This document shows positions 19,955 to 37,970 of a DNA stretch of 64,000 nucleotides, in pieces. The notes under the pieces are model-generated. The model was not told where the DNA came from and searched no databases. It saw nothing but the letters and a program-made list of their open reading frames with translations. This DNA is from Vulcanimicrobiota bacterium. GTDB taxonomy: Bacteria; Vulcanimicrobiota; Vulcanimicrobiia; Vulcanimicrobiales; Vulcanimicrobiaceae. The stretch is taken from contig CAWGMX010000003.1 of NCBI GenBank assembly GCA_963823795.1, forward strand, positions 317,180 to 381,179, written 5' to 3'. Position 1 is the first letter of the stretch; each line of letters begins with the position of its first letter. The translations under genes were made by a program, and so were the position numbers.

Positions 19955-20202
19955 CTACTATCTTTAAAATCGACCCAGCGAATGGAAACGAAACGACCCT
20001 CTATAACTTTGGGACGATCTTTCGTTACACGCCCGCAACGAATGAGTTCGACGAGCTGTACGCCTTCGGCGGCAAACCCGACAGTGCGTACCCTCGCGGC
20101 GGCTTAGTCTTTTCTCAACGTCGACAGGCAAGATCAATTCTTCGGCACCACGTACGACGGCGGTAGAGAAGGCCTCGGAACCATCTTCAGCATGACTCCG
20201 TA
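19955..20202 (+). pseudogene. Remnant of a Gloeo_Verruco (GloVer)-type repeat protein
   Basis: My translation gives IFKIDPANGNETTLYNFGTIFRYTPATNEFDELYAFGGKPDSAYPRGGLV. After a frame change it gives FFGTTYDGGREGLGTIFSMTP*. Both match the repeat unit of the intact gene at 29344-30714. No start codon or signal peptide. Confidence 0.35.
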
Positions 20203-20276
20203 GAGACGCCGGGCGCATACGTTAGGGAGTAAAGCGCCTCAGGTAAGCCGAAAAATAGTGCTGGGAGGTAGCTCGC

Positions 20277-21314: not shown

Positions 21315-21320
21315 GCCTTC

Positions 21321-21502
21321 ACGCCTTTAAAATAAGGACAATACTTTTTGGGATGGCCGGGAGTCGAACCCAAGTTCGGGGATTCCAGGCGATACCGTCC
21401 GTTACCGAAAAGTGTTTTCTGTCAGGCTTTTCCGCCGCACCGGTTCCCCGATCGCCCCGCCCAATCCCGACCGTTTCCGCCGCGTCGGTGACAAAATGTG
21501 AC
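21321..21502 (-). repeat. att-like repeat A (core plus ~135-bp arm)
   Basis: Core 21324-21371 is CCTTTAAAATAAGGACAATACTTTTTGGGATGGCCGGGAGTCGAACCC. Its reverse complement contains GGGTTCGACTCCCGGCCATCCCA. The arm ends in GTGACAAAATGTGAC (21488-21502). Homologous to repeats B and C. Confidence 0.7.
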
Positions 21503-21616
21503 GCGATGCTGCTGCTGTCGAGCGAGCAGGAGTCCGCTTCTGCCTCATGCCGTACGCTCGCCGTGATATTAACCCGCCGGCACCAACAGTTAGGCCACTT
21601 CGCGCGTCTATAGGTC

Positions 21617-22180
21617 GTGGCACTATCGATAGACGCGGCGCTCGTGGAGTCGGCCAGGGTCGAAACTGGCGCTCTGGAGCGGTTGATCGAGACGGTTTGG
21701 CCCGAAGCATACCGTGTCGCCCTGACCATCCTACGCGATCACGGTTTAGCCGAAGACGCAGCTCAGGATGCGTGCGCTACCATTGCGCGATCGCTCAACT
21801 CACTAAAGAACGACAATACGTTTGCGACGTGGACGTACCGGATCGCGGCGAACGCGGCCATTACGATCGGGCGCCATCAACTCCCGGTACAATCCCTCGA
21901 CCCTGTCGCCGCTCGCGGCTGGTCGGTCGATACAGCCGAAGCCGTCGATCTCGATAATGCGCTCGCCGCGCTTCCGATCGTGCAGCGCGCCGCGATCTTA
22001 CTCCACTATTACGCGGGATTGAAAAGCAGGGAAATCGCTGCCGCGACCGGTTTGCCGTCGTCCACGATTCGCTTCCACATCATGCTCGCGAGGCGCGCGC
22101 TGCGCAAAGCACTCGCCGTCGAGGAAGCTGCATCCACTGCATCCACCCTATCCGATGAGGTACTTACGAATGCCCGCTGA
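21617..22180 (+). CDS. ECF-type RNA polymerase sigma-70 factor
   Basis: 187 aa. Region 2 (DAAQDACATIARSL ... FATWTYRIAANAA) and region 4 (LLHYYAGLKSREIAAATGLPSSTIRFHIMLARRAL). Confidence 0.85.
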   Translation: MALSIDAALVESARVETGALERLIETVWPEAYRVALTILRDHGLAEDAAQDACATIARSLNSLKNDNTFATWTYRIAANAAITIGRHQLPVQSLDPVAARGWSVDTAEAVDLDNALAALPIVQRAAILLHYYAGLKSREIAAATGLPSSTIRFHIMLARRALRKALAVEEAASTASTLSDEVLTNAR

Positions 22181-22940
22181 ATCGCGAATCGCCAGGGTCC
22201 TAGAGTCTATGCTGTCGGCTATCGATTCGCCGCCTTCCCCGACGCGTGCAATCTTGGATCGTGCCGCAGCGGCGTTGCCAGCCGAGCCTCGTCGTATCCG
22301 CCCCTACGCACGCTTCGCGCTCGTCGCCGCTGCGACAATTGCACTGGTCTTTGCGATTTTCCCCAAAACGTCGGTCGCGCTGATCGAGCGCATCGTCGTC
22401 GACAGTTACGCGGCGGCATACCGCGTTATAGGTTGGACGCCACCTCCAAATCCGCCGAAGGCTCTCGACAAGGCGGCTGAATCAGAACAGGTTTCATTAG
22501 CCGCGGCACAGACGAGGGTGCCGTTTAGGATCGTACCGCCGGCCGGTTTACCCTCCGACGCCGTCCTCACCGGCATCCATACAATGCCGGTGCTCTCCTA
22601 CGACGAAGCGAAGCACGTATGGTCGAAGGACTCGCCCACGCTAGCGTTCGAGTACCGCCGCGCGGATGGCCGCGCGTTTCAACTCGTCGCCGAAAAAGAC
22701 GATCCCCGCACGGGAGCACCGCCACGCTCCATTTTTGAGGCGGAAGACTTACCGGGCGGCAAGGTCGCATTGACCAGACGCGCGCACTACGCTTGGACGA
22801 ACGGCGATCAGATGATCTCGGTTAACGCCAACGGTATCACGGTGGCGGAGATCAAGGCGATTTGCGCTGCGATGAACGGTCAACCGGTTCATCACAACGC
22901 ACGCGAGACAGTCACCAAGCGATATTCGCTACGATCCTAA
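22170..22940 (+). CDS. Single-pass membrane protein, putative anti-sigma partner
   Basis: ATG at 22170 overlaps the sigma gene stop. One TM helix (FALVAAATIALVFAIF) and an extracytoplasmic domain. The role is inferred from position only. Confidence 0.5.
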   Translation: MPAESRIARVLESMLSAIDSPPSPTRAILDRAAAALPAEPRRIRPYARFALVAAATIALVFAIFPKTSVALIERIVVDSYAAAYRVIGWTPPPNPPKALDKAAESEQVSLAAAQTRVPFRIVPPAGLPSDAVLTGIHTMPVLSYDEAKHVWSKDSPTLAFEYRRADGRAFQLVAEKDDPRTGAPPRSIFEAEDLPGGKVALTRRAHYAWTNGDQMISVNANGITVAEIKAICAAMNGQPVHHNARETVTKRYSLRS

Positions 22941-23358
22941 GAGATGAGCGACCGCCCCCGATTTCGGTGCGCGCCGTTTCATCGCGTCCTAGCTTGCCGT
23001 CGAAACCGGACTGATCCAGCCACTCCTCGGTGTTTCCCGTCCAAGGCTTCAAGTACGAAACGTGCCACAGCCCTTGGTCGTCGACCTGAGTTTGAACCCA
23101 ACGATTGTTTCTCGCGTCGTACACGAAGGACTTGCTGATCGAATATTGGTTGGTCTGACCTTGCACCTGGGCGGCATCCCATTCACGCATGCTTTCTGAG
23201 TCGATCACAAACGCCACCTTGATCTTGTATAGCGTTGGATCCTTGACTGGCCCCGCCGGGCACGCCCAGGTCCCGACGAAGTACTGCTCCGCGACCATTC
23301 CGTTCGGCCCCTTGGCCTCAGCCGTGCCCGCGTCTGAAAGCGGTGAGCGGCTCGCCAT
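22912..23358 (-). CDS. Hypothetical protein
   Basis: 148-aa ORF with protein-like composition. No recognisable motif, and it overlaps the convergent gene end by 29 nt. Confidence 0.35.
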   Translation of the reverse strand: MASRSPLSDAGTAEAKGPNGMVAEQYFVGTWACPAGPVKDPTLYKIKVAFVIDSESMREWDAAQVQGQTNQYSISKSFVYDARNNRWVQTQVDDQGLWHVSYLKPWTGNTEEWLDQSGFDGKLGRDETARTEIGGGRSSLRIVANIAW

Positions 23359-23454
23359 TTACAACGACCGGCGGGGCGGGTGGCGTCATCGCGCCGGTCC
23401 GAGGCTCGCCGATTGCGACGGGCCGAGCGCCCTTAGGTGTGGCCGTTAAGGCTC

Positions 23455-24615
23455 CTAGAGCGGCGGCGGTACGCACGCGCCGTTGACAACGCGACACGTG
23501 GCAATGGCCATCGGATATTGGCCCGTTCCGAATGGCGATCCGTGGACCGCCGTCAACGCGCCGGTGTTCAGTGTGATTTTATAACCCGAAACGCTCCATG
23601 AGGTCTCGTTGACCGCGTAGACCACCTTGCCCGCCGGGTCGATCGCGATGGCGTGAGGCCCGGTGCCGGCTGTAAACGGAGAACCCGGTATCGCCCTTAG
23701 CGGACCGGAGGTTGTAATGTCATAGCCCGAAACCTCGTTGGCGCTGAAGTTCCCTACGTACGCGAATGAGCCGTTGGGAGTGATGGCGACGCCGTACGGG
23801 CCGGTGGCCGTTGCAAATGGGGACTTTGAGAGCGCGGTCAGCGCGCCGGTGGCGGCATTGACGGAATAGCCGGATATATTGTTGGAGCTGAAGTTAGTAA
23901 CGAAGGTGAACTTGCCGTTGGGAGCGATTGCTAAACCATTAGGGCCGGTGCCTGCCGCAAACGGCGATCCCGTTACCTGCGACAGCGCGCCGCTCCCGTT
24001 GTAGGAATACCCCGAAACGTTGTTCGTGCTCGAGTTGGCAGCATAAACGAACTTCGCTTTGGGATCGACCGCGATGGCGTCAGGGTACGTGCCGGCGGAA
24101 AACGGCGATCCAGAAACCGCGGTCAGCGCGCCGGTCGAGCCGTTGATGGTGTAGGCGGAAATATTGTTGGAGTTGCCGTTGGTCACGTACGCAAACCGGC
24201 CGTGACTGTCGATCGCTACGGCGTTGGGTCCGGTTCCCGTAGAATACGGCGATCCACTTATTTGCGTGAGCGCGCCGGTGCTCGCGTTGATGCTATAGAC
24301 CGAGACTTCGTTTGAGCCATTGTCGGCCACGTAGGCGAAGCCGCCCAGAGGGTCGATCGCAATGCCTTCGGGACCGGTGCCGGCCGAAAACGGCGATCCC
24401 GTTATCTGCGAAAGCGAGCCGCTCGAGATCTGGTAGGCGGAAATGGTATTGGAAACGCTGTTGGGCACATACACAAACTCGACGCTGACATCGGGCCGAA
24501 CGTCAGGTGCCACCCGCGGTGGCGTTCCCGCGCCGCCTGAGGACGAGCACGCGGTAACGAGTACGGCGACCGCAAGCGCGGGAACGGTTCGGAAAGCGCG
24601 GCGAATGACTCGCAT
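23455..24615 (-). CDS. Lipoprotein, lactonase-type 7-bladed beta-propeller family
   Basis: 386 aa with lipobox VTACS. Seven or more repeats of ...G.GP.(A/G)IA(I/V)DP.G.F.YV.N..SN.(V/I)S.Y.I... Confidence 0.75.
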   Translation of the reverse strand: MRVIRRAFRTVPALAVAVLVTACSSSGGAGTPPRVAPDVRPDVSVEFVYVPNSVSNTISAYQISSGSLSQITGSPFSAGTGPEGIAIDPLGGFAYVADNGSNEVSVYSINASTGALTQISGSPYSTGTGPNAVAIDSHGRFAYVTNGNSNNISAYTINGSTGALTAVSGSPFSAGTYPDAIAVDPKAKFVYAANSSTNNVSGYSYNGSGALSQVTGSPFAAGTGPNGLAIAPNGKFTFVTNFSSNNISGYSVNAATGALTALSKSPFATATGPYGVAITPNGSFAYVGNFSANEVSGYDITTSGPLRAIPGSPFTAGTGPHAIAIDPAGKVVYAVNETSWSVSGYKITLNTGALTAVHGSPFGTGQYPMAIATCRVVNGACVPPPL

Positions 24616-25026
24616 CTCCAGCCTCCTTGAGGAGCAACTAAGCAGCCTACGAGGTTCGAGTCGGCTCGCCCTGCAGCCTGTAGGTGGCGTTCGTCACGCA
24701 TGCCGGGAGCGGGGGCGCCGAGGCGTAGTCCCGACATTGCGATCGCCGACTTTCTACCATGGAGAGGTTACGGTTCGGCACGCTGACCTCGCAGATCTCC
24801 AGCGACGAAAAGCAGCTCCGGAGCGCCACGCTCATGCCAAGGCAGCGCCAGCAGATCGACGCCGACCTGCTCAAGACTGAGAACGCCTTATCGTAGCTCA
24901 CGGGGTACTTGCCGAAGCGGAAGCTCAGGTAACGCAAGCCCAGGTCGAGAGCGCCGGCGCAATGGCGAAGTGCGCGCTCAAGGCCGACGAAAAACGAGGA
25001 CCTAAAACCGACCTAGAGTGGCGAAC

Positions 25027-25210
25027 AGCCTTGTAAAATAAGGACACTACTTTTGGGATGGCCGGGAGTCGAACCCAAGCTCGGGGATTCCAGCCGATCC
25101 CGTCCGTTACCGAAAAGTGTTAATTCTGTCAGGGTATTCCGCCGCACTGCTTCCCCGACCGTCCCTTCCGGTACCGACCGCTTCCGACCCGTCCGTGACA
25201 AAATGTGACA
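25027..25210 (-). repeat. att-like repeat B (core plus arm)
   Basis: Core 25029-25076. The arm is nearly identical to repeat C (AAGCTCGGGGATTCCAGCCGATCCCGTCCGTTACCGAA...CGTCCGTGACAAAATGTGACA). Confidence 0.7.
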
Positions 25211-25221
25211 GGCTTTTTCAC

Positions 25222-28040
25222 TCACCGCCCTTGCGATTCGCTTTCGTCAAGCGCGAGTGCGATCGCAGCCTCTGGTGTGAGTGCGGCGCCCTCTGCGCTC
25301 AGTCGTGCGAGTTCGTCGGGCGCGAGTTCCTCGCGCAGGAGCGCGTTCAGGCGGTCATGCGTCGTCGTCTCGGTGAACTCGCGCGGGTATCCGTGCCGCT
25401 GTAACGCGGCGTCGGCGTAGCCTTCGAGTGAGGCCGCGCGCGCAAGTTCGCCGCGCAGCGCGAAGACTAGCGCCAGATGTTCGATCGCAATCGCGACTTG
25501 GGCATGGTCCGGCTCGCGCGCGGCACGGATTCCGATCGCCTCGCGAGCCGCCGCCGCTGCGCCAGGAAAATCGTCGACAGCGACAAGATAGCCTGCGAGG
25601 TTGTGGAGCAGATTGCCGAGCAAGGTCTTATCTGCACCAGACCGTGCCGCCGGAAGCGTCTCGCGAACGATCGCAATCGCTCGTTGCGTCTGACCTCGCG
25701 CGTGTTCGATCTCCGCGAGGTTGAGTGCCGCAATCTGCTCGCCGCGGGCGTTTCCGAGCGAGCGGCCACTCTTTTCGGAACTGCTCGTACATGCGTGCCG
25801 CCGTCTCGGGATCGCCGCGAAGATTGGCTTAAAAGCGCACGCCTTCTCGAGCAACTGAATGCGAAGGTAAGCCGAAGTTCGCCGGGATCGCCTCGACTTC
25901 CGTTAACGCCCTCTCCGCATCGTCAAGCCGATTGAGGAATGTCGCTGGAGACGCATACCGGCACAGCGCCCTGGCCAGCAACGGCGTCGTCGCCGCTTGC
26001 CCGCGCATGCTCGACCGCCTGCCGTCGCCAGCTCGAATGCGCGCACCTTGTGACCAGGAGCGGCGAGCAAGTCCGACAACGCGGTTGACAGCCGAGCGCG
26101 CAGCCGCGACTGGCCCGCCGGAAGCGCCGCGAGGTACGCCTCGCACCGTGCCATGCCTTCCGCCTCGAGTCCGATGATCTTGCCAACTCGCGTCAATGTT
26201 GGCGAGCAACTCGCCGCCGTCGATGACTTCCGAACGCGACCAACGCACCGTCGAGCGCCGACACGCACGTCCTCCAGTTCGGTCTGCAGCGCCGCAGTCA
26301 AGATCGGCAATTCGCGCCGTCCGCTCGCGCCGTTCCCACAGCTCCGCAAAGCGGTCGCGCAGATAGCGCAGATGGCGGCCCGCAGCCGAGATCGCGCTCG
26401 CCCGCATCGTCGAGCTTCTCCAACGCATAGGCGCGCGTCGATTCGAGCAGCCGGTAGCGCACTGCGTCGCCTTGCGGTTCGGCGAGCACTAGCGACTTAT
26501 CGACCAGCGAGGCCAGCACGTCGAAGACGTCGAGTTCGTCGAGATCTATCAGCGCTCCCGACCGCGACGGCTCCCTCAAGCGCGAATCCGTTGACGAAGA
26601 TCCCCAGCCGCCGGAAGAGCACCCGCTCGCGCTCGTCGAGCAGGTCGTAACTCCAATCGATCAGCGCGCGCAGCGTCTGATGGCGCGGCAGCGCGTCGCG
26701 GCTCGCCGCCGGTGAGCACGCGGAAGCGCTCGTCGAGGCGTTCGCGCAGCTGTTTTGGGCTGAGCATCTTCACCCGCGCGGCCGCCAGTTCGATCGCCAG
26801 CGGAATGCCGTCGAGCCGCCGGCAGATGTCGGCGACGACCGGCGCATTCTCGTCGGTCAGGGAAAACGAATCGCTCGCGGCGCGCGCGCGTTCGACGAAG
26901 AGCGCGACGGACTCAAATCGCAGCAGGTCGATCGCGGTCAGGTGCGTTGCTTCATCTTTGCCCGGAAGACGAGGGACGGCACCCGGTACGTCGCTTCGCC
27001 GGCGATTCCCAGCCCTTGGCGGCTCGAGGCGAGCACCTTGACCTTCGGAGCAACCGTGCAGGATTGCCGAGATCACGCGCGCCGCGGGCTCGACCAGATG
27101 CTCGCAGTTGTCGAACACGAGCAAGATATGCTTTCCCTTGAGCGCGCGAACGAGGTTCTCTACCGGATCGCCCTCGGTCGCGAGCGTGAGCCCGAGCGCC
27201 TGCGCGACGGTCGATGGAATGTAGTCGCCGCTGGTCAGCGGCGCGAGTTCGATGAACCACACGCCGTCGCCGAAGCCGTCGAGCAGATTGGCCGCGACTT
27301 GCAAGGAGAGCGCGCGTCTTGCCGACGCCGCCCGAGCCGACCAGGGTGACAAGCGGTGCTCTTCTCGATGAGCGCAGCGATCTCGCGCCGACCTCCGCCT
27401 CGCGACCGACGAAGGAGGTGAGCTGGGCGCGGCAAGTTGTTCGGAAGGAGGTCGAGCGAACGCAGCGGCGGAAAGTCCGCGGCGAGATCGGGCGCGAGCA
27501 GTTGATAGACTGCTCGGGCCGCGCAAGATCTTTGAGCCGATGCGCGCCCAGATCGCGCAGGCTGCACTGCGGCGGCAGCGCCACCCTGGACCAGCTCGGT
27601 CAGTGACACCCGAGACGAGCACCTGGCCGCCGTGGCCGATCGCCAGCAGGCGCGCGACGCGATTGACCGTTGGTCCGAAGTAGTCGCCGTCGCGCTCGTC
27701 GGCACTTCCCGCGTGAACGCCATGCGAACACGCAATCCGTCGACCGCCGAGAAATCTGTCTGCCGCAAGTGCGCGCTGTGCGTCGAGAGTCGCGGCGACT
27801 GCATCGCCGGAGCCGTCGCGAAGGCCGCGCAGAACGCGTCGCCGATCGTCTTAAAGACGATCGCCGCGTGCTTCCGATCGCCGCGTGCATCAGCGCATCG
27901 TGGCGGCGTAGCGCCCGCTGCATCGCCTCGCGGTCGCGTTCCCAGCGTGCGGTGCTGCCTTCGATATCCGAAAACAGAAACGTGACCGTGCCGGTAGGGC
28001 GAGCCGAGGCCGGCGGCCCTGGTTTCACACGAGTCGCCAT
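25222..28040 (-). pseudogene. Class III adenylate/guanylate cyclase - P-loop STAND NTPase - TPR protein, heavily frameshifted
   Basis: Starts MATRVKPG...GTVTFLFSDIEGSTARWERDREAMQRALRRHDALMHAAI. Recognisable pieces continue in alternating frames: VFKTIGDAFCAAF, DFSAVDGLRVRMAF, ERDGDYFGPTVNRVARLLAIGHGGQVLVSGVT, LRDLGAHRLKDLARPEQ and LTSFVGREAEV. Further pieces are LVTLVGSGGVGKTR (Walker A), ILLVFDNCEHL (Walker B), LDGIPLAIELAAARV and a TPR-like C-terminus in ORF 25222-25854. Confidence 0.8.
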
Positions 28041-28080
28041 GGACCCGCGTTTCGTGCTAGAGGTGTTCCCCTCCGCCAAG

Positions 28081-28270
28081 CGGCGGAAACGCCTGTAAAA
28101 TAAGGCCGGTTTTCGTGGGATGGCCGGGAGTCGAACCCAAGCTCGGGGATTCCAGCCGATCCCGTCCGTTACCGAATGGTGTTATCCTGTCAGCTTTTTC
28201 GCCGCACTGGTTCCCCGATCGTCCCGCCCGGTCCCGACCGCTTCCGACCCGTCCGTGACAAAATGTGACA
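28081..28270 (-). repeat. att-like repeat C (core plus arm)
   Basis: Core 28092-28138. The arm ends in GTGACAAAATGTGACA at 28255-28270. Confidence 0.7.
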
Positions 28271-28301
28271 GAACCAGTACTTGAGCGACTGCCTGCCACA
28301 C

Positions 28302-28621
28302 CTCAGACCTCGATTCTCAAACGGCAAATCCGCAGGACCCAGAGGTCTTGAAATGCACACCGCTCATCTCGATAAGACTCGCCAAATAACTGTGAGGGTG
28401 GGTTGCTTTTGAAGGCTGCTGCGAACTCCTTGGCCGTTTGCTCCCCGAGGGCCGAGTGCGGCCACCGCTCCTATCTTGAACACAATAGATATCGATCGAC
28501 GCGATTCCCACGCGGTGGGCCTGCCCGCGGCGGCGTGTCCGAACTCGTGGCCTAGAACCTCTCGGAGCGGACAACGATCCAACGTTCGCGTGGAAGCGTC
28601 GGGCAGCCAAGGAAAACTCAT
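28302..28621 (-). pseudogene. ImmA/IrrE-family metallopeptidase remnant (frameshifted)
   Basis: One frame has REVLGHEFGHAAAG (HExxH). About 35 codons later another frame has GEQTAKEFAAAFKSNP, matching the E..A..FA..L.P signature that follows HExxH in this family. No intact ORF. Confidence 0.4.
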
Positions 28622-28679
28622 GCGATTTACTTAGCGCACTGGTAGGCTTAGCCCGGGGGGTCAACTCGAGCCAGGCCTG

Positions 28680-29276: not shown

Positions 29277-29343
29277 GACAAAACCCGCGTGCCAGCGCGC
29301 GCTCGAACAGGCGAGTCAACATTCCTTATTCTATGAGAGTGCG

Positions 29344-30714
29344 TTAGGGCTGCAAAGCAAAGATCGTTCCATAGGTACAATATCCGTCGGATCTTGGGCA
29401 GCTCGGGAGGTTAACGCCGCCCCCGTAGGTTGCGCCATAAAGCGTGCCGTTTACTTCAGTTAAGCCCGACAAGGGATCGATTCCATCATATTGATAACTT
29501 CCAAAACTGTGTAACACGCGTTCCCGGCCGGCTCCGCTTAAGCGGAAGACGGTTCCCTCGCCCTCCGCACCTCCAGTTGACGTCGTGCCGTACAGCACGC
29601 CGTTCACCATAGTCACGGGCGCAACGGGGGCGGATCCGTCAGAGCCATTGGTGCTAAAGCTGTGCAACACGCGCTGATCCTTGCCACTCAAGGTCATGCT
29701 GAAGACCGCTCCCGAGCCGGTAGCGCCCCCGCCTCCGGTCGTGCCGTAGAGCGTTCCGGTCGCAGCAATTAGGCCTGCGTCCGGGTACGCGCCATCTGGA
29801 CCCTTGAACCTGTGTAACACGTGCTCTCTGCCGGCAGTACTTATTTTGAAGACCGTTCCGAAGCCATGCCCGCCGACCTGAGTTGTGCCAAACAACGAGC
29901 CGTTCACATTGACTAGCATTGCCAGCGGATTAGCGCCGTCGGTGCCCGTGCCGAAACTATGCAGTACTCGCTCGATCGAACCAGTCTCGCTTATAGCAAA
30001 GACGGTTCCTTTGCTGTATGCGCCGCCCTCGTACGTCGTGCCGTAGAGCCTCGTTCTGAAAGCAATCAAACCCGCCCGCGGTTGTGCTCCGTCGGTAGCG
30101 TAACCGAAGCTATGCAACACTTTCTCTTTGCCTGCCCTAGTTATGCTAAAGACCGTTCCGCCGTTGTAGGTGCCGCCCTCGCTTGTCGTACCGTAGAGCG
30201 TCCCATTCACGGTTACCAGATCCGCGACGGGCTCCGCTCCATCAGGACTACCCGTGAAGCTATGTAGTACGACCTCCTTACCGGAAGCGGTGACCCTGAA
30301 AACCGTTCCATCGCCATGTGCATACCCCGCTGCCCCGCCGTATTCCGTCGTACCATAGAACACGCCCATTAAGGTGATAAGGTCCGCCGTGGGAGAGACT
30401 CCATCGTAGCCGTTTACATTGCTACCGAAGCTGAAGAGCACTTTATATTTAGAAGACGTTGAAGATGGGTCCAAGGAACGGGCCGCTGCGGGCAGCGGCC
30501 ACGATTCGCTCGAACGCGAACAGCCTGCAAACATCGTGGCGCTAAGCATCAACACCACAAAAGTGCAGAGAATGGGGCCAGTCACTAGGGGTTTTAACGT
30601 TTGATGGACATGGGTTCGATTTCTCAGCGCGGTCCGCACCGTAGTGGAACGGCGGCGTCGAACCCGCGCGCCCAAATAAGATCTAGATCCCGAAGCAGGC
30701 ATAGGTAATTCCAA
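29344..30714 (-). CDS. Lipoprotein with about 8 Gloeo_Verruco (GloVer)-type repeats
   Basis: 456 aa with lipobox MFAGC. Repeat unit of about 45 aa: VLHSF..G.DGA.P.A.L....G.LYGTT..GG....GTVF. Confidence 0.7.
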   Translation of the reverse strand: MELPMPASGSRSYLGARVRRRRSTTVRTALRNRTHVHQTLKPLVTGPILCTFVVLMLSATMFAGCSRSSESWPLPAAARSLDPSSTSSKYKVLFSFGSNVNGYDGVSPTADLITLMGVFYGTTEYGGAAGYAHGDGTVFRVTASGKEVVLHSFTGSPDGAEPVADLVTVNGTLYGTTSEGGTYNGGTVFSITRAGKEKVLHSFGYATDGAQPRAGLIAFRTRLYGTTYEGGAYSKGTVFAISETGSIERVLHSFGTGTDGANPLAMLVNVNGSLFGTTQVGGHGFGTVFKISTAGREHVLHRFKGPDGAYPDAGLIAATGTLYGTTGGGGATGSGAVFSMTLSGKDQRVLHSFSTNGSDGSAPVAPVTMVNGVLYGTTSTGGAEGEGTVFRLSGAGRERVLHSFGSYQYDGIDPLSGLTEVNGTLYGATYGGGVNLPSCPRSDGYCTYGTIFALQP

Positions 30715-31867
30715 GGGTAGTGTCGTTTGCGATGGGGCTTCCAGAACTGTTGTAGGCTTGAATGTTGAAGCCGCTAGGCGTCTGGCTATCGGCGGCGAGG
30801 TTAATAAGGTACGACGACGTCGAACTCAGGATGCAGGTGTATTTGTCATTTGCAAATTCAGCGTTGGCGCCGGTAAAGCTGATGCTGGCATTGTTTAAGG
30901 CGCACCAACTGCCGTTCGCGCAACCTCCGTTGGGGGTGATATTGAGAGCACTGGCATTCTTGACGATATGAAAGGTATCGGTGCACGAGCTGCCATCAGG
31001 TCCGTAGCACGGCCCAGCCGGGCCTGGCGTCGCATTGAACGAAACCGCGGACATCAGCGGCCCGCCAATGTGCAGCGGCGCGTTACACGTGAGGGTGCTC
31101 GCCGTCGTTTCACCATAGTCGCACTTCGCGTAATTTGACACGCTTCCCAGGAGGACATCACCCTCACCTGCGCCCGTGTAGGATACGAGGGACCCGTGAG
31201 AATACGATGGTAATGGGTTCGGGCTGCCGTCGCCGGCGCCGGCGATAATTGTTGAGCCCGCAAACAGATTTGTTATGACCCCGAAATTGCCGTTTCCATC
31301 AACGGCGACGAAAAACCCGTCATTGGTGACGGGCAACGGGCTCACCATGACCGTCACGCCGAAAGCCTGATTTGAGATTCCTCCCGGACAATATCCGGGA
31401 CAATCATCCGCCGCCCCATGATGCGTGTAGGATGTACCCGTTGAGCCGGGGTGGGGCGTATTAACATCATTCCCGTACGCAAGATAATGATGCGACTGCG
31501 CTCCAGGAGATCCGAAGCAGACAAAATAACAAAGCCCGGTATCAAGAATACCGGTGCCGGACGGTTGATACTCAAAAGCATTGATTCCGGTGTTATAAAT
31601 GTTGCCTGCTCCCCAAGCTCCTCCAATACCAACGTAAGGCGACGGGGTCACCATCGGCAAAACCGACGTGGCCCACGGGAGATAGCTGGGTGGGTCTTCT
31701 GGGAAAGCGTCTGACAGTGCCACACGACTAACAACCGAGGATTGCCCGGAACCGTGGGCGCTTGCGCCGAGATAAAGCGACACCACGGCGATCAGCACGC
31801 CGAGCATGATCACCAGACGTTGCACCCTGTGCGTGGAAGGCCTGTTCTTACGCTCCAAAACAGGCAT
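30683..31867 (-). CDS. Membrane-anchored/secreted Gly-Ser-Asn-Cys-rich protein, paralogue 1
   Basis: Start set at the ATG at 31867 (MPVLERKNRPSTHRVQRLVIMLGVLIAVVSLYLGASAHG). About 140 C-terminal residues are shared with the next gene (CNAPL..GP..S.......GP.GPCY...GS.C..TFH.VKN.S.L.IT..G.C....WC.LNNASIS.TGANA.FAND.Y.C.LSS.S.YLI.L.A..QT..GF.IQAYN.SGS.IA....LG..YACFG). Confidence 0.6.
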   Translation of the reverse strand: MPVLERKNRPSTHRVQRLVIMLGVLIAVVSLYLGASAHGSGQSSVVSRVALSDAFPEDPPSYLPWATSVLPMVTPSPYVGIGGAWGAGNIYNTGINAFEYQPSGTGILDTGLCYFVCFGSPGAQSHHYLAYGNDVNTPHPGSTGTSYTHHGAADDCPGYCPGGISNQAFGVTVMVSPLPVTNDGFFVAVDGNGNFGVITNLFAGSTIIAGAGDGSPNPLPSYSHGSLVSYTGAGEGDVLLGSVSNYAKCDYGETTASTLTCNAPLHIGGPLMSAVSFNATPGPAGPCYGPDGSSCTDTFHIVKNASALNITPNGGCANGSWCALNNASISFTGANAEFANDKYTCILSSTSSYLINLAADSQTPSGFNIQAYNSSGSPIANDTTLGITYACFGI

Positions 31868-33003
31868 AGGCGACGCCGAGGTCCGTGCCGCTCGCGATGG
31901 AACTTCCCGAATTGTTGTAGGCTTGTATTTCGAAGCCTGTTGTCGTCTGATTATTTGCGAGTAGGCTAATGAGATAAGTGGATAGCGAGCTGAGCGAACA
32001 GGAATACTGGTCGTTTGCAAACTGAGCGTTAGCGCCGGTAATACTAATGCTGGCGTTGTTCAACGTACACCAAGTATCGTTAGGGCATGCGCCGCTTGTC
32101 GTTATGTCGAGGCCGCTGCTGTTCTTTACGACGTGGAATGTGTTCGCGCACGGGCTACCGCTATAAGCGTAGCACGGACCGACCGGTCCGAGCGCTGCTG
32201 TCGTGGAAACCCCAGACTTCACGGGTCCATTGACGTTGAGCGGTGCGTTGCAGCTAAGCTTACTCGGCGCCGACTCGCCGTAGTCGCACTTCACGTAGTT
32301 ACCTGAGCTCCCGAGCAGAATATCGCCAGTATCCGGCTTCTCACTAGTGCCGGTGTACGATACTAGTGATCCTGGAGACGGCGGGGGCACCGGGTTAGGC
32401 GAGGTACCTGCTCCCGCGACAACTGCTGCCCCTGCATAGATGTTGTTAAAAACCGCGAAATTCGCGCTGGCATCAATCGCTACCAACACCGTAGGTGTGG
32501 CCGTGGGAGAAGCGTATCCCTCTATACTAAAAACCTGATCGCTGATTCCACCAGGGCAAAGGCGCGGACCGCTGGTCGAGCAGTCATCCGGCGCTCCAAT
32601 GGTCGTAAAAGAATAGGAGTTGGGAGATGAAACGTCATTTCCAACCGCAATTACATTAGACGACGCTACTCCTGGCACCCCATAGCAAAGGAACGCGCAA
32701 ATTCGTACCGAGCACGCCAGTGCCTGGGCTACCGAAGCCATTTGTGGCCGTGTTATAGATATTGCCCGCACCTAGAGCGCCTCCGATCCCAACATAGGCT
32801 GACGTAATCGGACTTGGCCACGGCGAGGCCATGTTGTACCACGTGACGTAGTTCGGGGTAGGGGCCTGCGCAACGAGAGTCGTAGCCGGTCGCGTTGGTC
32901 CTGCGCTTGCACCCACGCAAAGCGCGATGGTTGTCGCGAGCACTGCGAGCATGATGGCCAGGCGTTGAATCACCGATACGCTCCGCAAAGCAAAAAAAGA
33001 CAT
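31848..33003 (-). pseudogene. Paralogue 2 of the Gly-Ser-Asn-Cys-rich secreted protein, one frameshift
   Basis: The N-terminal part (ATG at 33003, MSFFALRSVSVIQRLAIMLAVLATTIALCVGASAG...NGFGSPGTGVLGT) is in the frame of ORF 32656-33207. It continues as ICAFLCYGVPGVASSNVIAVGNDV... in the frame of ORF 31848-32771. The junction is near 32695-32712. Confidence 0.55.
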
Positions 33004-33327
33004 CGAAATCTTCGGCGCCCCCTGCCGGCCCTCCCCCGAGCAAACGGTTCGAGCAGTTATCGAAGGAGAGTTAGGGGCTGAACAGCACCGGCGTTTGGCA
33101 GCGGTCTCCGCAGCGCGAGAGACCACGAGCGTCGCGGCCGATGCCGGCGCCTGTAGCCGTCTTTCAGAGAGTGTGACGAACCCCCTTACGTGTTTTTTGG
33201 GGCGCACTGCTGTGACTGGGAGGGGCGCCGTTTCGAGCCCCGTCCTCTATGCCCCGTTAGCCTCCCCCTTCAGGCAGCCCTTTGCATTCTTGCTCAGCAA
33301 AGCCATCGACGTTGATAGCAAACGGGG

Positions 33328-33684
33328 TTATAACCCCAGGTCTCGGTTGTTGCCAGTGACAGCGAGCTGGGCCGAAGACGTTCCGAGAAGCCACTGCTTG
33401 CGTAGATTGGCCGGAACGACGATGAGGATACGGCGTTTGCCCTCTGCCCAGCGCTGAGAGATTACTAGCCCAGCCTCAATCGTCTTGCCTAGACCCACCT
33501 CGTCGGCAAGCAAAGCCCCCTTTGACAGCGGGGACGCGAAAGCGAAAAGAGCGGCGTCGACCTGGTGAGGATTTACGTCGACCTGTGCGCCGGCAACCGC
33601 GATGGCGAGGCGCTCCGTGCTATCGGAGGAGCGCCGTCGAATGAGATCGTGCGCAATGTATTTCGCTTGGTAATCGGTGATCAT
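33328..33684 (-). pseudogene. N-terminal fragment (~100 aa) of an SNF2-family helicase
   Basis: [14 protein letters not shown]...[12 protein letters not shown]...[20 protein letters not shown]...[13 protein letters not shown] covers helicase motifs I/Ia. The reading frame then degenerates and stops. SNF2 helicases are about 900 aa or longer. Confidence 0.6.
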
Positions 33685-33835
33685 TCTACGATTTCTGCTA
33701 ACGTATTAGTTGCGCTCATATTGTCAGGGTTGTAGTCCCAAGCCCTTTCTGACACCTCCGGTTCGGATTTCAGCACGGTCTGGCTCGGGGCAGCGACGCG
33801 CCAATTAGAGGATCGATGCTCCGCTTGCCACCTGA

Positions 33836-34849
33836 TCATTCGCGCCTCATATTCACTGCTCGCTCGAACGCACGAAGCGCACCGATTACTGAATCAAATG
33901 GCGGCGGATCGGTCAAAAACATCTGGCGCATGTTCCGATAATCTGCCGCGAGTTCGCGGAGGATCTCCGGATCCGGAACAACGACGAGTGAGCCCGGCTT
34001 CGCAAGGTCGTAGCGAGCCCAAGCGGCGTGATAGTATGAATCCTTGAAGACCCGGACGTCTTCCAACATGGCAAGATCGCGAGATGCTTCCTGCCCGATC
34101 CTTGTCCCCAACATCGCCGCTACGTCGGAATAGTGGCGCGAAAAAAACTGTTTGGGTTTGCCGCGGAAGCTCTCGGCGTGCAGGGCCGTTACCTTCTCCC
34201 AAAACGTCCGGTCGGGGACAAGAACGTTGCAGATTACCTGGGGCTCCTGCAGCAGCATCGGTATCTCGGCCAAATATGGAGCAATCGATCTGTGCTCGGC
34301 CGGAGCGGTCCTCGCGCGCCAGCCGAGTTCAATTTTCACGACGCTGCGGATATATGAATGTTCTCGATCGGGATCGCTCTTCGGGTAACTGAATAGCAAT
34401 GTATTGCGATCACTTTCATCTTGGCTAATACTCCACCCGGCGGCGGTGCCGAGTCGTTCCGCAAACTGGGCGCGCAACGCCGAGAGGAGAGCGCTACCGA
34501 TGTACGTCGCGCAGGCATCATCGAGTCGCGACATACGCTCGTCGCGCCACGTCTTGCTGATCCCGGGCTCCTCGGGGTCGGAGAGCCCTTGGGCGATGAA
34601 GAAGCTCGGATCGGTGACAACGTCAATATCTTCGGAGAATCTCGCGATCAAGCCGTAAGCCTTTGATAGCGAGGTACCACCCTTGAACGTTAGCGCCGCG
34701 TGTCCAGCCGGCAAATCAAAAAGCGCTTTCAGCGTCCAACAGACCCAGAAGTCCTTTTCGACGGTCGTGAAATCGACGTCCATTTGGATCGCCCGCTCCT
34801 GGATGATCTCACGGCGTTCCATGGCGGCTAGCCGCGCGAAGCTATCCAT
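33836..34849 (-). CDS. abiEii: AbiEii/AbiGii-family nucleotidyltransferase toxin (type IV TA)
   Basis: 337 aa with FKGGTSLSKAYGLIARFSEDIDV. Overlaps the upstream antitoxin gene by 8 nt. Confidence 0.85.
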   Translation of the reverse strand: MDSFARLAAMERREIIQERAIQMDVDFTTVEKDFWVCWTLKALFDLPAGHAALTFKGGTSLSKAYGLIARFSEDIDVVTDPSFFIAQGLSDPEEPGISKTWRDERMSRLDDACATYIGSALLSALRAQFAERLGTAAGWSISQDESDRNTLLFSYPKSDPDREHSYIRSVVKIELGWRARTAPAEHRSIAPYLAEIPMLLQEPQVICNVLVPDRTFWEKVTALHAESFRGKPKQFFSRHYSDVAAMLGTRIGQEASRDLAMLEDVRVFKDSYYHAAWARYDLAKPGSLVVVPDPEILRELAADYRNMRQMFLTDPPPFDSVIGALRAFERAVNMRRE

Positions 34850-35474
34850 GCGTCTCGCCCTCGTCCGCTAGAATCTTATCGATCAACCTCAGCATCCACG
34901 ACGGTGCTCGTCCCGCACGTTGCCTCAACCGCTTCGCGAGATCGTGCTCGCGAACGAAGGTGCGAAGCTTCGCAACTTCAACCTCGGTGGCGTTTGGTTT
35001 TCCGATCGCCTGCAGCGCGTCGATGACGAGCTCCGCCGGATCGGCATCGCGCGCAAGCGAGCGCGGGCCGGCGGTTCGTAGTCGGATGCGCTGGCCACCG
35101 ATGTTCAGCTCGCGCGGGAATAAGTTGGTACGATAGACGGGCCGCGCGACGACCTGGGTGGTGAGCCCGAGCCGGTTCGCGGCGTCGAGCTCGGGGCGCT
35201 CAATCTTCGCGCCGGTCTTCCGTTCATGGGCTGCGATGATCGCCTCAGGCGTTGGGCTCAGGGCGCCGATTCGCGGGTTAGTCTTCGGAACGTCGTAGTA
35301 GCCCTTGGACAGCCGACGGATCGTTCCGGCCTTTGCCAGACGACGCAGCGCCTGCCTGACGGCATCTTCGGAACCAAGCCGGTCGCGAACCAGTTCGGCC
35401 GGGGTGAAGACCGTGCCGGCGTCCAGCTTGCGAACGTACCGGCGGATCGCCCCAGCCACGGTCAGAACAGCCAT
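34842..35474 (-). CDS. abiEi: AbiEi-family antitoxin/transcriptional regulator (wHTH)
   Basis: 210 aa. N-terminal wHTH-like FTPAELVRDRLGSEDAVRQALRRLAKAGTIRRLSKGYYDVP. Paired with AbiEii. Confidence 0.8.
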   Translation of the reverse strand: MAVLTVAGAIRRYVRKLDAGTVFTPAELVRDRLGSEDAVRQALRRLAKAGTIRRLSKGYYDVPKTNPRIGALSPTPEAIIAAHERKTGAKIERPELDAANRLGLTTQVVARPVYRTNLFPRELNIGGQRIRLRTAGPRSLARDADPAELVIDALQAIGKPNATEVEVAKLRTFVREHDLAKRLRQRAGRAPSWMLRLIDKILADEGETHG

Positions 35475-35478
35475 AATA

Positions 35479-35508
35479 TGTCACATTTTACTATAGAAAA
35501 ATGTGACA
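35479..35508. promoter_or_regulatory. Near-perfect palindrome just upstream of abiEi (putative operator/promoter)
   Basis: TGTCACATTTTA-CTATAG-AAAAATGTGACA starts 5 nt upstream of the abiEi ATG (35472-35474). On the minus strand it contains TATAGT and TAAAAT -10-like hexamers. Confidence 0.5.
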
Positions 35509-36313
35509 GTCAACACCCTCGGGTCCGGCCTCAGGTCCCGGTACAGCCGCCCGGCTTCCCCAAACTGTCCATGGCATTGCTAAGGGCGTCCCAATGGCCA
35601 AATTTCTTTTGCCTGGGGCGCCACGAAAGGCCTTGCCTGCGATCGCTAGCGGGCTCACTCGCTGGGCGCTCTGTAACACGTGCCGACGCGGGCTGAGCGG
35701 ACCGTGAGGGCCGCGACCCCGCCCGGTCTGGTCGGGAGGACGGCGCCCGCAGGGCGTTGTCCGTACAACCACCGGCTTGCGTCATGAAAAGCCGTCGATG
35801 CCCGTCACGACAAAAGCCTACGCGAAGATGCCAGTTCGCTCAGCCAGGTGATGCGATCGAGCTGCGTTAGAGCAACGAAACGCAAAGCGATCGCACTGCA
35901 AGCGCAACGCCGGCTGCCACGGTTCTGATAACCGCGGAGCAACGCCACAGCAATGCTACGCGAATCGAGTGCAATGCCGGAGCATCAAGGGTGTCATGGA
36001 CGCGACGTCACGAGGTTCCACTGCACTGGGGCGACTCGCGCCCGAAAGAGGCTTGGCAGAGCGGACCAAGGGAAGGGCACGGAGCCGGGTTCATTGCCGA
36101 ACGCGACCGGGTCCAGGGTCTGCCCGTAAGGGCCGAGCGAAGCGAGCCCTGGACGCGGACGCTAAAATCTAAGTCGAGCCGGCTCCCTGCGGCACGACGC
36201 GTTGCGCGGTATAATGGGGGTGACGAATCGCATTTGACTTTCGCACGCATTATAATGCGGGTAAATCGCTCCGGAGCTTGCGCTCTGGGGCATTTTTGTT
36301 TTGGAGAGCCACG

Positions 36314-36673
36314 ATGGATAGGAACGGGCGACCGAGAGAAGCGCGTGGCGCGGTGACCGAACGCGACTTGCAGCAGGTCCTCCCCGGTATGGATGGCGAT
36401 GCGGGGTACGTAAGAAGTGACCGCCCGCATCCGATCACGCGAAAAACGAGAGTCGTTCGCTACGACGATCTACCCGAGGTACTGACGCCGAAGGAAGCCC
36501 AGGCGTTTCTACGCCTTGGCCGCAACGCGATCTACGCAGCGTTGCAAGACGGGCAGATCCGAAGCGTACGCGTCGGGCGGAAGTTCCTAATCCCCAAGAC
36601 CGCCCTGCGGGAGTTTCTGGACCGCCATGGCGAACACCCACGCGCTGGAATCCCCGTGAAAGGAACAACCTAA
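36314..36673 (+). CDS. xis: Excisionase-family helix-turn-helix DNA-binding protein
   Basis: ATG at 36314 lies after GGAGAG. LTPKEAQAFLRLGRNAIYAALQDGQIRSVRVGRKFLIPKTAL. Sits directly upstream of int, 1 nt from it. Confidence 0.65.
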   Translation: MDRNGRPREARGAVTERDLQQVLPGMDGDAGYVRSDRPHPITRKTRVVRYDDLPEVLTPKEAQAFLRLGRNAIYAALQDGQIRSVRVGRKFLIPKTALREFLDRHGEHPRAGIPVKGTT

Positions 36674-36674
36674 C

Positions 36675-37850
36675 ATGGGGTCAGTCAAGCGACTACGAGA
36701 TAAAGTCTATCGTATCGTCTACGATGTTCCGAGCACGGATGGAAAACGCAAACAAAAACGTAAGACACTCTATAACGTCACCAAATCAGAAGCCGAAGCG
36801 ACTCTTGCCAAGCGAAAGGAAAAGGCGAAGCATTCCGGCGCCGTTCGGATTCCCAACCTCACCGTCGCCGAGCTATTTGGCGAGTTCTTTCAAATCAAAC
36901 GGAGGACGCTCTCCACATCGGCGCTCGAACGCTACGAGGGAATGTTCCGCAACTACATCGGACCCGCGATCGGTAACGTCAGAGTGAGCGACCTACGACC
37001 GCAGCAACTGACCGACGCTTACGCAGAGTGGGCCGCCAAAGGGGTCAGCGGGAAGCCGCTGTCTGGCCGTACCGTCCACCACGCTCACGATCTCATCCGG
37101 TGCGCCCTGAACTTCGGCACGCGGCGGGAGTGGGTCACACGGAACGTTGCTACGTGTTTGGAATCCGAGGACTTACCGAAGGTGACGAAGCCGGAGCCGA
37201 TAGCCTTGGATGAGGCGGAGATGGCCACACTTCTCAGTGCGGCGCGCAATCCATCAGAGCGCGCCAAGCGATCCGGTGCCCCGAGCGCCGAGCCGTGGTT
37301 TTATTCCGCCGTCGCGTTCGCGCTATACACCGGAGCGAGGCGAGGAGAAGTCCTCGGACTCCGCTGGTCCGACGTAGACTTCGAATCCGACACCGTCACC
37401 ATCATGCGATCACTCACGCGAACCCATAGTCGGGGCCTGTTCTTCAAGGAGCCCAAAAGCGGTAAGGCGCGGACGATTACCATGCCCTGTACGCTCACCG
37501 CAATCTTGAAGCGACACCGAGAGGCGCAAGACGACGAGCGAAACATCGTTGGAGCCGGATACAAGGACGACGATCTCGTCTTTGCCCGGCCCGATGGTTT
37601 ACTCGTGAACCCTCGGAACTTCGGGAACAGGGTAATCGAGTTGGCGGCTCGGGCGAAGGTCACGCCGATCACGGCTCACTGCTTACGCGACACGCACGCA
37701 TCGCTTCTTGCGAAAAGAGGCGTGCCGCTGGAAGTGGTGAGCAAACGCCTCGGCCATGGCGATATCCGCGTGACGGCCGAACGCTACTTACATGTCTACA
37801 GGGAAAGCGATGCGGCAGCAGCGAGGGTGCTCGACAGCCTCCCCGCGTAG
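36675..37850 (+). CDS. int: Tyrosine-type site-specific integrase
   Basis: 391 aa. Catalytic region ALYTGARRGEVLGLRWSDVD ... HCLRDTHASLLAKRGVPLEVVSKRLGHGDIRVTAERYLHV (R..H-x-x-R..Y). Confidence 0.9.
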   Translation: MGSVKRLRDKVYRIVYDVPSTDGKRKQKRKTLYNVTKSEAEATLAKRKEKAKHSGAVRIPNLTVAELFGEFFQIKRRTLSTSALERYEGMFRNYIGPAIGNVRVSDLRPQQLTDAYAEWAAKGVSGKPLSGRTVHHAHDLIRCALNFGTRREWVTRNVATCLESEDLPKVTKPEPIALDEAEMATLLSAARNPSERAKRSGAPSAEPWFYSAVAFALYTGARRGEVLGLRWSDVDFESDTVTIMRSLTRTHSRGLFFKEPKSGKARTITMPCTLTAILKRHREAQDDERNIVGAGYKDDDLVFARPDGLLVNPRNFGNRVIELAARAKVTPITAHCLRDTHASLLAKRGVPLEVVSKRLGHGDIRVTAERYLHVYRESDAAAARVLDSLPA

Positions 37851-37868
37851 GCGGCGCCTCGCACCTCT

Positions 37869-37888
37869 GTGACAAATCCGTGACAAAT
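37869..37888. promoter_or_regulatory. Two direct GTGACAAAT repeats (putative arm-type recombinase sites)
   Basis: GTGACAAAT at 37869-37877 and 37880-37888, with 11-bp phasing, lies between the int stop and core D. Repeats A-C carry the related GTGACAAAATGTGAC. Confidence 0.35.
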
Positions 37889-37922
37889 CGGGGGTAGAAA
37901 CGAAGCTGGTGCGGCGGGAACA

Positions 37923-37970
37923 CCTGTAAAATAAGGACAATACTTTTTGGGATGGCCGGGAGTCGAACCC
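37923..37970 (-). repeat. att-like core D (adjacent to integrase)
   Basis: CCTGTAAAATAAGGACAATACTTTTTGGGATGGCCGGGAGTCGAACCC. Sequence beyond 37970 diverges completely from repeats A-C. Confidence 0.7.

Follow-up and report, generated by a model that had tools for sequence, protein, structure and literature searches.

What accumulates at a chromosomal site where one short sequence recurs four times in the same orientation, each time next to different genes? We addressed this question for a 64,000-nucleotide (nt) stretch of a Vulcanimicrobiota bacterium (assembly GCA_963823795.1, contig CAWGMX010000003.1, positions 317,180 to 381,179), hereafter the window, in which ~48-bp core copies A, B, C and D delimit two small units (A-B and B-C) and a 9.8-kb element (C-D) that carries a tyrosine integrase gene (int). 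The original prediction, made from the sequence alone, read these as tandem elements that had each entered the 3' end of one RNA gene. This reading is supported by a real tRNA end at copy D, by the clustering of copies beside that tRNA in other genomes, by related integrases there and by unoccupied alleles. We conclude that the locus is very probably a tRNA-anchored stack of site-specific integrative elements, serially integrated, whose outer units are most likely decayed relics resembling cis-mobilisable elements (CIMEs). The junctions are precise, an integrase is associated with them, alleles lacking the 9.8-kb element exist and the copies are co-oriented.

Repeat copies and arms

A search with the 48-mer found D without mismatch and A with one (expectation 0, 100 shuffles), and missed B and C because these carry a 1-nt indel and substitutions in the 25 nt outside the tRNA-derived part of the core. 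A repeat finder grouped all four in one family (D8: 21321-21371, 25026-25076, 28088-28138 and 37920-37970); alignment and read-out agreed, bearing out the four same-orientation copies that had been proposed (Table 1). Multiple alignment, suggested as a check, gave a 23-mer, TGGGATGGCCGGGAGTCGAACCC, identical in 4/4 copies (starts 21349, 25054, 28116 and 37948; one orientation) and arms in A-C only. The one-sided arm of these three copies, on the high-coordinate side, is ~130 bp long and ends each time in GTGACAAAATGTGAC(A), much as described before, and whole units are 87.6-89.3% identical in pairs. D adjoins the excisionase gene (xis) and int, as had also been claimed, with two copies of GTGACAAAT between the core and the integrase stop codon. 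The shorter string GTGACAAA occurs five times in the window, always in an arm, where ~1.0 is expected and no shuffle reached 5. Arm-type sites of the form TTTGTCAC(G/A)GA number two in the integrase-proximal (P) arm and one and a half in the distal (P') arm, and are putative binding sites of the integrase (Int).

Direct repeats 3-10 kb apart are a substrate for unequal exchange, and the copies could therefore be imagined to stem from local segmental duplication, or unequal crossing-over, of a single att junction. We regard this origin as highly improbable: the three arms diverge by 11-12%, the copies are not alike in their 25-nt motifs, no homology links the intervening segments, and each arm is closer to arms in other genomes than to those in the window.

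The ~180-bp unit of arm and core lacks terminal inverted repeats. Across 63 units, RNAalifold, used as a proxy for single-strand folding, returned -3.4 for the sense and -6.5 for the antisense strand (column shuffles: -1.1 +/- 1.2), and found no helix spanning the whole arm and core. A role of the arm as a structured RNA or tRNA-like gene was rejected, there being no conserved fold and the GGGATGG of the consensus arm not being kept in the window's arms; a role as outward promoter was rejected as well, since a sigma-70-like site was found in none of the arms. A further 25-nt direct repeat (88% identical; 21295-21319 and 34639-34663) links the 3' end of open reading frame (ORF) 345 with the interior of AbiEii, and is probably due to chance.

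An intron-split tRNA-Leu(UAA) gene as target

The core had been read as the 3' end of an RNA gene, with a T-arm and the acceptor 3' strand. That gene can now be named: D comprises the last 23 nt of tRNA-Leu(UAA), that is, the 3' part of the T-arm, the acceptor 3' strand and the discriminator, followed by 25 nt of downstream sequence. On the minus strand, a 7-bp acceptor stem without mismatches starts at 38258 and closes 311 nt; once spliced together, the exons take the fold of an ordinary 84-nt class II tRNA-Leu(taa) (ARAGORN -i: gactt/intron/aaaat). Default ARAGORN reported only a tRNA-Met elsewhere in the window and no tRNA-Leu(UAA), and Rfam gave nothing at the site at the gathering threshold or E<=10 except T-arm-sized fragments (13 bits). 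Both miss the tRNA because a group I intron splits the gene. Rfam Intron_gpI did not match this intron even at E<=10, because the Rfam group I seed holds no bacterial sequences (10.1101/2020.01.27.920355).

With Rfam blank, the identity of the intron rests on a structure sketched manually after the model of the classical tRNA-Leu intron (P1-P9, P3/P7 pseudoknot included), which favours that assignment, and on covariation. When its 87 pairs were placed on 31 homologous genes, 97.5% of cells were paired, compared with 34-42% when the partners were slid; 24 pairs had changed on both sides, and 0/500 shuffles reached the observed values. P3, P4 and P7 were invariant and covariation fell in P2, P5a, P6, P8 and P9. 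The U-1:G wobble in P1 and a G as last intron base were present in all 31 genes. The intron has the classical Leu.3Ug setting (CUU/intron/AAAA) and is predicted to be self-splicing.

Counting the window, we recovered 65 intact tRNA-Leu(UAA) genes, 44 with an intron (211-326 nt) and 21 without. The intronless genes of relatives are of equal length, and the closest agree with the spliced product as predicted in 83/84 positions, so that the exon borders are fixed. Intron length varies in P5, P6 and P9; the exons are nearly identical, and the gene looks single-copy. At one conserved locus across Eremiobacterota the intron is polymorphic, being present in L052:679-990 and absent from L067:5319-5403 (L numbers are our labels for the sequences compared). 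A weak terminator-like hairpin follows the tRNA (37908-37924, minus strand). Transfer-messenger RNA was considered as an alternative target and rejected, as the acceptor stem lacks the expected G3:U70 pair; for other known RNAs, Rfam gave T-arm-level matches only (13 bits). In practice, automatic annotation would omit this tRNA, so that the genome would seem to lack it, and island finders relying on tRNA calls would overlook the whole hotspot.

Unoccupied and differently occupied alleles

The original prediction proposed comparing related genomes for empty or differently occupied sites, and both kinds were found. The most informative is L102, an 8.3-kb contig from Joint Genome Institute (JGI) sample 3300055389. 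It is ~99.9% identical to window 20200-25229 (ORF345, core A, unit 1, core B and arm B) and continues with a ~87% identical allele of the unit 2 STAND gene (signal transduction ATPase with numerous domains), a C-type 25-nt motif, the core, tRNA exon 2 and the end of the intron. By sequence, this junction is exactly the one predicted for a chromosome without the 9.8-kb element. The 25-nt motif has stayed on the distal side and the arm has gone with the element, which places strand exchange inside the 23-bp tRNA-derived segment. The differing interval (window 25230-28069 against L102:5354-8170; ~87%, many indels) is exactly the unit 2 cargo, with breakpoints lying at arm B's outer edge and immediately ahead of core C.

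Other states were found as well. In L067, which also lacks the integrase element, ORF345, a core and an intronless tRNA are contiguous at 90% identity; in L006 the tRNA and the conserved left flank are only ~1.3 kb apart; another array, of 6 kb, occupies the site in the closest genome (L013/L052); and L105, from sample 3300055389, shows a third downstream sequence (98.8% identical over 1,050 aligned nt). The occupied junction recurs at 99.9% in L001, from the same sample as L102, and is also present in L106 from another sample.

These contigs bear on whether the array is an artefact of assembling a metagenome-assembled genome (MAG), a concern for an uncultured lineage whose STAND region is frameshifted and differs from the allele in sample 3300055389. 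Such an artefact is scarcely credible, as junctions and interiors are reproduced at 99.7-99.97% by L001, L102 (A, B and flanks), L103, L104, L106 and L108, contigs obtained independently from one Logan run and two JGI samples, and comparable arrays are seen in dozens of other, independently made assemblies, closed chromosomes among them.

Arrays and integrases in related genomes

When GTDB species-representative genomes were scanned for exact matches to the 23-mer, 100 stretches came up; almost every one belongs to an Eremiobacterota/Vulcanimicrobiota MAG (Ca. Cybelea, Baltobacteraceae and others), with several copies on many contigs. A profile of arm and core gave 171 hits in ~100 loci; orientation was mixed in 0 loci, and copies were always co-oriented with the tRNA. 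In four closed chromosomes (OY970243.1, OY970207.1, OY970335.1 and OY969421.1) all exact copies fall in one region of <=24 kb. Beside the tRNA, copies span 24 kb in OY970243.1 and 16-22 kb in several long contigs, and in CAVVZF010000001.1 arm and core units reach up to ~135 kb from the tRNA (L093, L060, L031, L047 and L044; 1.58-1.72 Mb).

Integrases of the window type (63-92% identity) abut the tRNA convergently in 11 other loci (L019, L021, L022, L032, L050, L055, L056, L080, L085, L093 and L094), and wherever such a gene adjoins and sequence is available, two TTTGTCAC sites lie 50-70 nt past the core. Five loci (L002, L026, L034, L059 and L075) have at this tRNA end an integrase of another lineage, 31-35% identical to the window's, and a T-rich downstream sequence, TAAGTTTTTTGGGC..., in place of the 25-nt motif; tRNA-Leu(UAA) is therefore the target of at least two recombinase families. 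The conserved genes ppx-accA-accD adjoin the tRNA in dozens of loci.

The abundance of the ~180-bp unit could in itself suggest a dispersed repeat unrelated to integration, comparable to a miniature inverted-repeat transposable element (MITE), a repetitive extragenic palindrome (REP) or a tRNA-derived short interspersed element (SINE). This can hardly be right. Copies on the same contig cluster beside tRNA-Leu(UAA), in loci that were found via the tRNA-derived 23-mer; four complete chromosomes hold them within one region of <=24 kb; they are always co-oriented with the tRNA; there are no terminal inverted repeats and no conserved fold; and the precise L102 junction fits site-specific recombination. 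A dispersed repeat without a link to integrases, which the original prediction had named as fatal to its hypothesis, is thus not what the relatives show: the clusters lie beside the tRNA, with int at 11 other loci.

Some smaller observations concern the same sites. At L038:6240-7380 the 25-nt motif after a core is interrupted by 1.1 kb of inserted DNA with two genes, one for a membrane protein and one for a small secreted protein. Partial motif copies flank the insertion, which suggests that some recombination events may use the 25-nt motif and not the tRNA-derived part. A short palindromic element, GTCATCCTGAGC...GTCGAAGGA, directly follows the tRNA-derived core in L086:4631, L094:6910, L080:7674, L017, L064, L072 and L090. 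In L080, L086 and L094, where the CCTTATTTTACAGG motif can be recognised, the element separates this motif from the core; it looks like a MITE/REP-type repeat. Four contigs labelled Acidiferrales, Trinickia, Acidoferrum and 'uncultured proteobacterium' (L029, L070, L090 and L098) carry the same tRNA, intron or arm units and are probably mis-binned Eremiobacterota contigs.

Integrase and proposed mechanism

Int can be aligned to PDB 3nkh and 6en0 and is similar to the Int of Tn1549. Its catalytic candidates are R222, K261/K264, H335, R338, H361 and Y371, the lysine candidates lying in KEPKSGKARTI (258-268). The gene stops at 37850, 97 nt short of the tRNA 3' end (37948), and the identical 23-mer recurs at 28116-28138. 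The locus therefore combines several features expected of a tRNA-targeting tyrosine-recombinase element, namely a catalytic set, int beside an intact tRNA, a repeated 3' end and an unoccupied site. The claim of a single surviving integrase also held: tblastn with Int and Xis found no second copy or remnant in the window, A-B and B-C included, below E=1.

The attP site would consist of the 130-bp P' arm, the 23-bp tRNA-identical core with the 25-nt motif, and a P arm with two TTTGTCAC sites. Int would exchange strands inside the 23-bp segment identical to the T-arm/acceptor end of the tRNA; the L102 junction comparison shows that an element entering in this way supplies a replacement 3' end and leaves the tRNA intact. 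Judging from the anatomy of the window and from the arrays of relatives, each new arrival would enter at the tRNA-proximal core and displace earlier ones outward, so that every internal junction would keep a P' arm and a core. The two outer units most likely lost int, xis and the P arm by deletion and would now be CIME-like relics. Loss of int is plausible because C-terminal int fragments lie beside internal cores elsewhere, at six junctions (L008, L027, L031 twice, L086 and L089). In principle, Int and Xis could release the 9.8-kb element on its own (D x C) or along with older units (D x B or D x A).

Origin of the units without an integrase

Cores delimit both A-B and B-C, which have no int homology and stand in tandem with an autonomous element, as expected of CIMEs. 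Several findings nevertheless weigh against decay in place as their history, and some against the wider reading. Neither unit keeps a trace of int or of the P arm, and both end within ~40 nt of the proximal core; two independent random deletions are not expected to give such precise ends. In relatives, int homology is absent from 47/52 core-to-core intervals, with a median length of 2.3 kb, although intervals were counted inside single 8-kb chunks and are biased towards short units. Arm and core are strongly conserved along their full length, with an abrupt outer edge (63 copies, many genomes), which leans towards active cassettes. In L087:2189-2535 a truncated ECF (extracytoplasmic function) sigma gene directly abuts the FecR flank (window 21570-21885 and 19672-19775), where the window has ORF345 and core A with its arm in between; part of unit 1 might hence be old chromosomal DNA, and by this comparison the distal end of the array appears rearranged in either the window or the L087 lineage. 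Because its STAND allele differs, L102 represents a related strain and not the window strain after excision, and no excision product or circular form of the integrase element was seen among the contigs compared. Finally, no relaxase, capsid or similar transfer genes were found in the element.

Several of these points would be accounted for if the integrase-less units were cassettes mobilised in trans, with the resident integrase acting at the tRNA-proximal core to capture, excise and reshuffle cargo together with its 155-bp arm/core. Besides the precise cargo ends in A-B and B-C, the many short intervals (often of one gene) and the conserved arms, two comparisons favour this alternative: some modules recur at different array positions in other genomes (L048/L049; L064/L048/L023), and L102 and the window differ in the unit 2 cargo only (87% against 99.9% for its neighbours). 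Whether arms travel with the module in L048/L049 was considered as further support and dropped, as arm identities of 76-84% do not discriminate. We nonetheless consider trans mobilisation unlikely. The int fragments at six internal junctions show that decay happens; the P-arm sites found with every intact int are missing from integrase-less units; homologous recombination between ~85-89% identical 180-bp repeats could also shuffle modules; the chunk size favours short intervals; the enzyme does not belong to the integron integrases, nor does the arm fold like attC; and the CIME/accretion model explains the anatomy without mobilisation in trans. Equally doubtful is the broadest form of the idea, a phylum-wide cassette platform on which a tRNA-adjacent integrase exchanges single-gene modules between genomes, integron-like and with a lambda-type att site, in arrays of tens of kb. 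If trans mobilisation were true, it would represent a second, independent solution to cassette capture. A tRNA-end genomic island of the ordinary kind, by comparison, is well supported.

Gene content and flanks

Table 1 Features of the tRNA-Leu(UAA) locus, in window coordinates
Feature	Position	Strand	Evidence and remarks
Probable accessory DNA beyond A, without terminal core	19820-21320	+	GloVer-repeat fragment ~19950-20203; lipoprotein-like ORF345 20277-21314
Core copy A	21324-21371	+	48-mer with 1 mismatch, repeat finder, alignment; unit 1 arm 21372-21502
Unit 1 cargo (A-B)	21503-25028	mixed	Pfam
ECF sigma factor	21617-22180	+	Pfam Sigma70_r2/r4_2
Possible anti-sigma ORF	22155-22940	+	
ORF148	22912-23358	-	
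7-bladed propeller lactonase-like protein	23455-24615	-	Pfam Lactonase 1e-44
Core copy B	25029-25076	+	Repeat finder, alignment; unit 2 arm 25077-25210
Unit 2 cargo (B-C): adenylate/guanylate-cyclase / P-loop NTPase / TPR (STAND-type) gene	25222-28079	-	Three-frame translation, TPR_12
Core copy C	28092-28138	+	Repeat finder, alignment; junction of integrase element and STAND unit
Autonomous integrase element (C-D)	28139-37922		9.8 kb; int, xis, AbiE pair, secreted and unknown proteins
Distal (P') arm of integrase element	28139-28270	+	Ends GTGACAAAATGTGACA
Remaining integrase-element cargo	28271-33835	-	ORF183, ORF307, ORF445, GloVer protein, ORF198, ORF115
ORF198	28680-29276	-	No family in Pfam, NCBIfam, PADLOC or PHROGs
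GloVer tandem-repeat protein, 456 aa	29344-30714	-	NCBIfam TIGR03803 1.5e-74
AbiEii	33836-34849	-	Pfam AbiEii; PADLOC 1e-90
AbiEi	34842-35474	-	Pfam DUF6088/AbiEi_4; PADLOC 9e-50
ORF121	35991-36356	+	No family match (Pfam, NCBIfam, PHROGs); tblastn
Excisionase-type helix-turn-helix protein (xis)	36314-36673	+	Pfam HTH_17 4e-11; NCBIfam TIGR01764 excisionase domain
Tyrosine integrase (int), 391 aa	36675-37850	+	Pfam Phage_integrase 6e-24, Phage_int_SAM_3; PHROG_1 2e-68; convergent with tRNA
Integrase-proximal (P) arm	37866-37890	+	Two direct arm-type sites GTGACAAAT, 37869-37877 and 37880-37888
Core copy D (attL core)	37923-37970	+	23 nt of tRNA 3' end (37948-37970) and 25-nt downstream motif (37923-37947)
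tRNA-Leu(UAA), integration target	37948-38258	-	ARAGORN with introns allowed; exon 1 38224-38258, exon 2 37948-37996
Group I intron	37997-38223	-	227 nt, between U34 and A35

The contents of the three units are as originally described: an ECF sigma factor and a propeller protein in A-B, a cyclase-STAND gene in B-C, and an AbiE pair, secreted proteins and xis-int in C-D. In GC content the modules differ from the flanks. Within the integrase element, AbiEi and AbiEii form a toxin-antitoxin / abortive-infection pair. For xis, 36278 is an alternative start, and the metagenome gene call (L001) corresponds to 36314. ORF121 accompanies xis-int in L056, L080, L032, L022 and L086 (tblastn). ORF183, ORF307, ORF445 and ORF115 matched no family in Pfam, NCBIfam, PADLOC or PHROGs, and ORF198 has homologues in 13 other arrays, the most of any ORF of the element (L044, L089, L083, L023, L092, L026, L101, L007, L049, L024, L075, L047 and L079). 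GloVer-type and propeller repeat proteins are common cargo and contain internal DNA repeats of 144-150 nt (23693-24424 and 29503-30310). We found no sign of a viral origin: the core 23-mer has 0 matches in IMG/VR, and a PHROGs scan matched int and xis only, with no phage structural, packaging or replication genes.

In the older units, an exact look-up of the ECF sigma protein sequence returned no record. The STAND gene had been called dead, and the window copy is indeed broken by frameshifts; the L102 allele (domains Guanylate_cyc, AAA_16, HTH_77 and TPR) has no stop or frameshift over the 974 codons held, so the description applies to the window copy alone, whose frameshifts could partly be an assembly effect. 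The tRNA-adjacent STAND genes of L058, L005, L008 and L039 were considered as the same unit and rejected as paralogues, being only 66-76% identical and, in L058, inverted.

To the left of A, variable DNA probably continues for ~1.5 kb, to ~19.8 kb. The conserved left flank of relatives stops at ~19770-19818 (L006, L013 and L087), from which we infer that ORF345 and the GloVer fragment, a C-terminal piece to its left, are probably older accessory DNA. ORF345 adjoins the tRNA or arms in L067, L038, L007 and L088. A 75-nt stretch (19866-19940) is 97% identical to L006:1586-1660, whose neighbouring flank is ~80% identical. To the right of D, housekeeping genes resume as expected: the tRNA body and a coiled-coil ORF are followed by ppx, accA and accD. 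This ORF (136 aa; 38271-38681, minus strand), between the tRNA and ppx, contains 33-nt (11-codon) tandem repeats at 38450-38632. DNA similarity to most relatives resumes only at ~38733 (for example, L052), and the coiled-coil protein is 36-56% identical in nine loci (tblastn).

For an uncultured soil/peat phylum with few described mobile elements, the locus provides a well-delimited one, with int, xis, att arms and core. Our comparisons show tRNA-Leu(UAA) to be the main site of gene gain across sampled members of Eremiobacterota/Vulcanimicrobiota, and the cargo recovered there is either defence-type or regulatory (AbiE, STAND NTPases and ECF sigma factors) or encodes secreted repeat proteins.

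Comparison with known systems

Tandem accretion with CIMEs has been described for the ICESt1/ICESt3-related islands of Streptococcus thermophilus and for tandems of integrative and mobilisable elements (IMEs) and ICEs (integrative conjugative elements) at tRNA-Lys in S. agalactiae (PMC5704250). Those islands and the present locus share a tyrosine-integrase element at a gene 3' end, same-orientation att-bounded neighbours without integration genes, and a proposed history of integration, decay and new integration at the gene-proximal att site. Here, in contrast, no conjugation or mobilisation genes were found, units measure 3-4 kb (median 2.3 kb in relatives) in arrays of many units, the host belongs to the uncultured Eremiobacterota and the target tRNA has a group I intron.

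In Prochlorococcus, tycheposons build genomic islands at tRNA 3' ends (Hackl et al., 10.1101/2020.12.28.424599). As proposed here, successive integrations push older elements inward to the island, which contains partial tRNAs, fragmented integrases, cargo and defence genes. Unlike tycheposons, the present element shows no helicase/primase replication module or genes like those of phage-inducible chromosomal islands (PICIs), and it has arm-type sites and a conserved 130-bp arm.

Integrons (IntI, attI and attC) resemble the arrays in having one recombinase at the end of co-oriented small units, often of a single gene, each ending in a conserved site. The integrase, however, scores 36.7 bits against a cut-off of 265 for NCBIfam TIGR02249 and 24.6 against 435 for PRK15417, the 155-nt arm with its tRNA-derived core lacks the attC hairpin fold, gene orientation is mixed within units and no Pc-like promoter was found. 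The attP sites of lambda, P4 and HP1 combine a core with arm-type integrase sites and undergo Xis-directed excision. The present element matches them in its short tRNA-identical core, its arms with direct arm-type sites, xis upstream of int and int beside attL; it differs in that it is no phage (no IMG/VR match and no structural genes), and Int is predicted to bind its arm-type sites.

The cyanobacterial and plastid tRNA-Leu(UAA) intron is classified as Leu.3Ug, subgroup IC3 (Williams 2020, 10.1101/2020.01.27.920355). The window intron shares with it the insertion site CUU/intron/AAAA, the U-1:G wobble, the omega-G and a P3-P9 core with the P3/P7 pseudoknot. It differs in its Eremiobacterota host, in the blank result for Rfam Intron_gpI and in being present in about two-thirds of the related loci found. 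The core of the Anabaena intron is presumably similar in sequence as well.

The locus as a whole fits the published accretion/CIME and tycheposon-island models, and adds to the original prediction a tRNA target hidden by an intron, a hotspot across sampled Eremiobacterota and arrays dominated by very small integrase-less modules.

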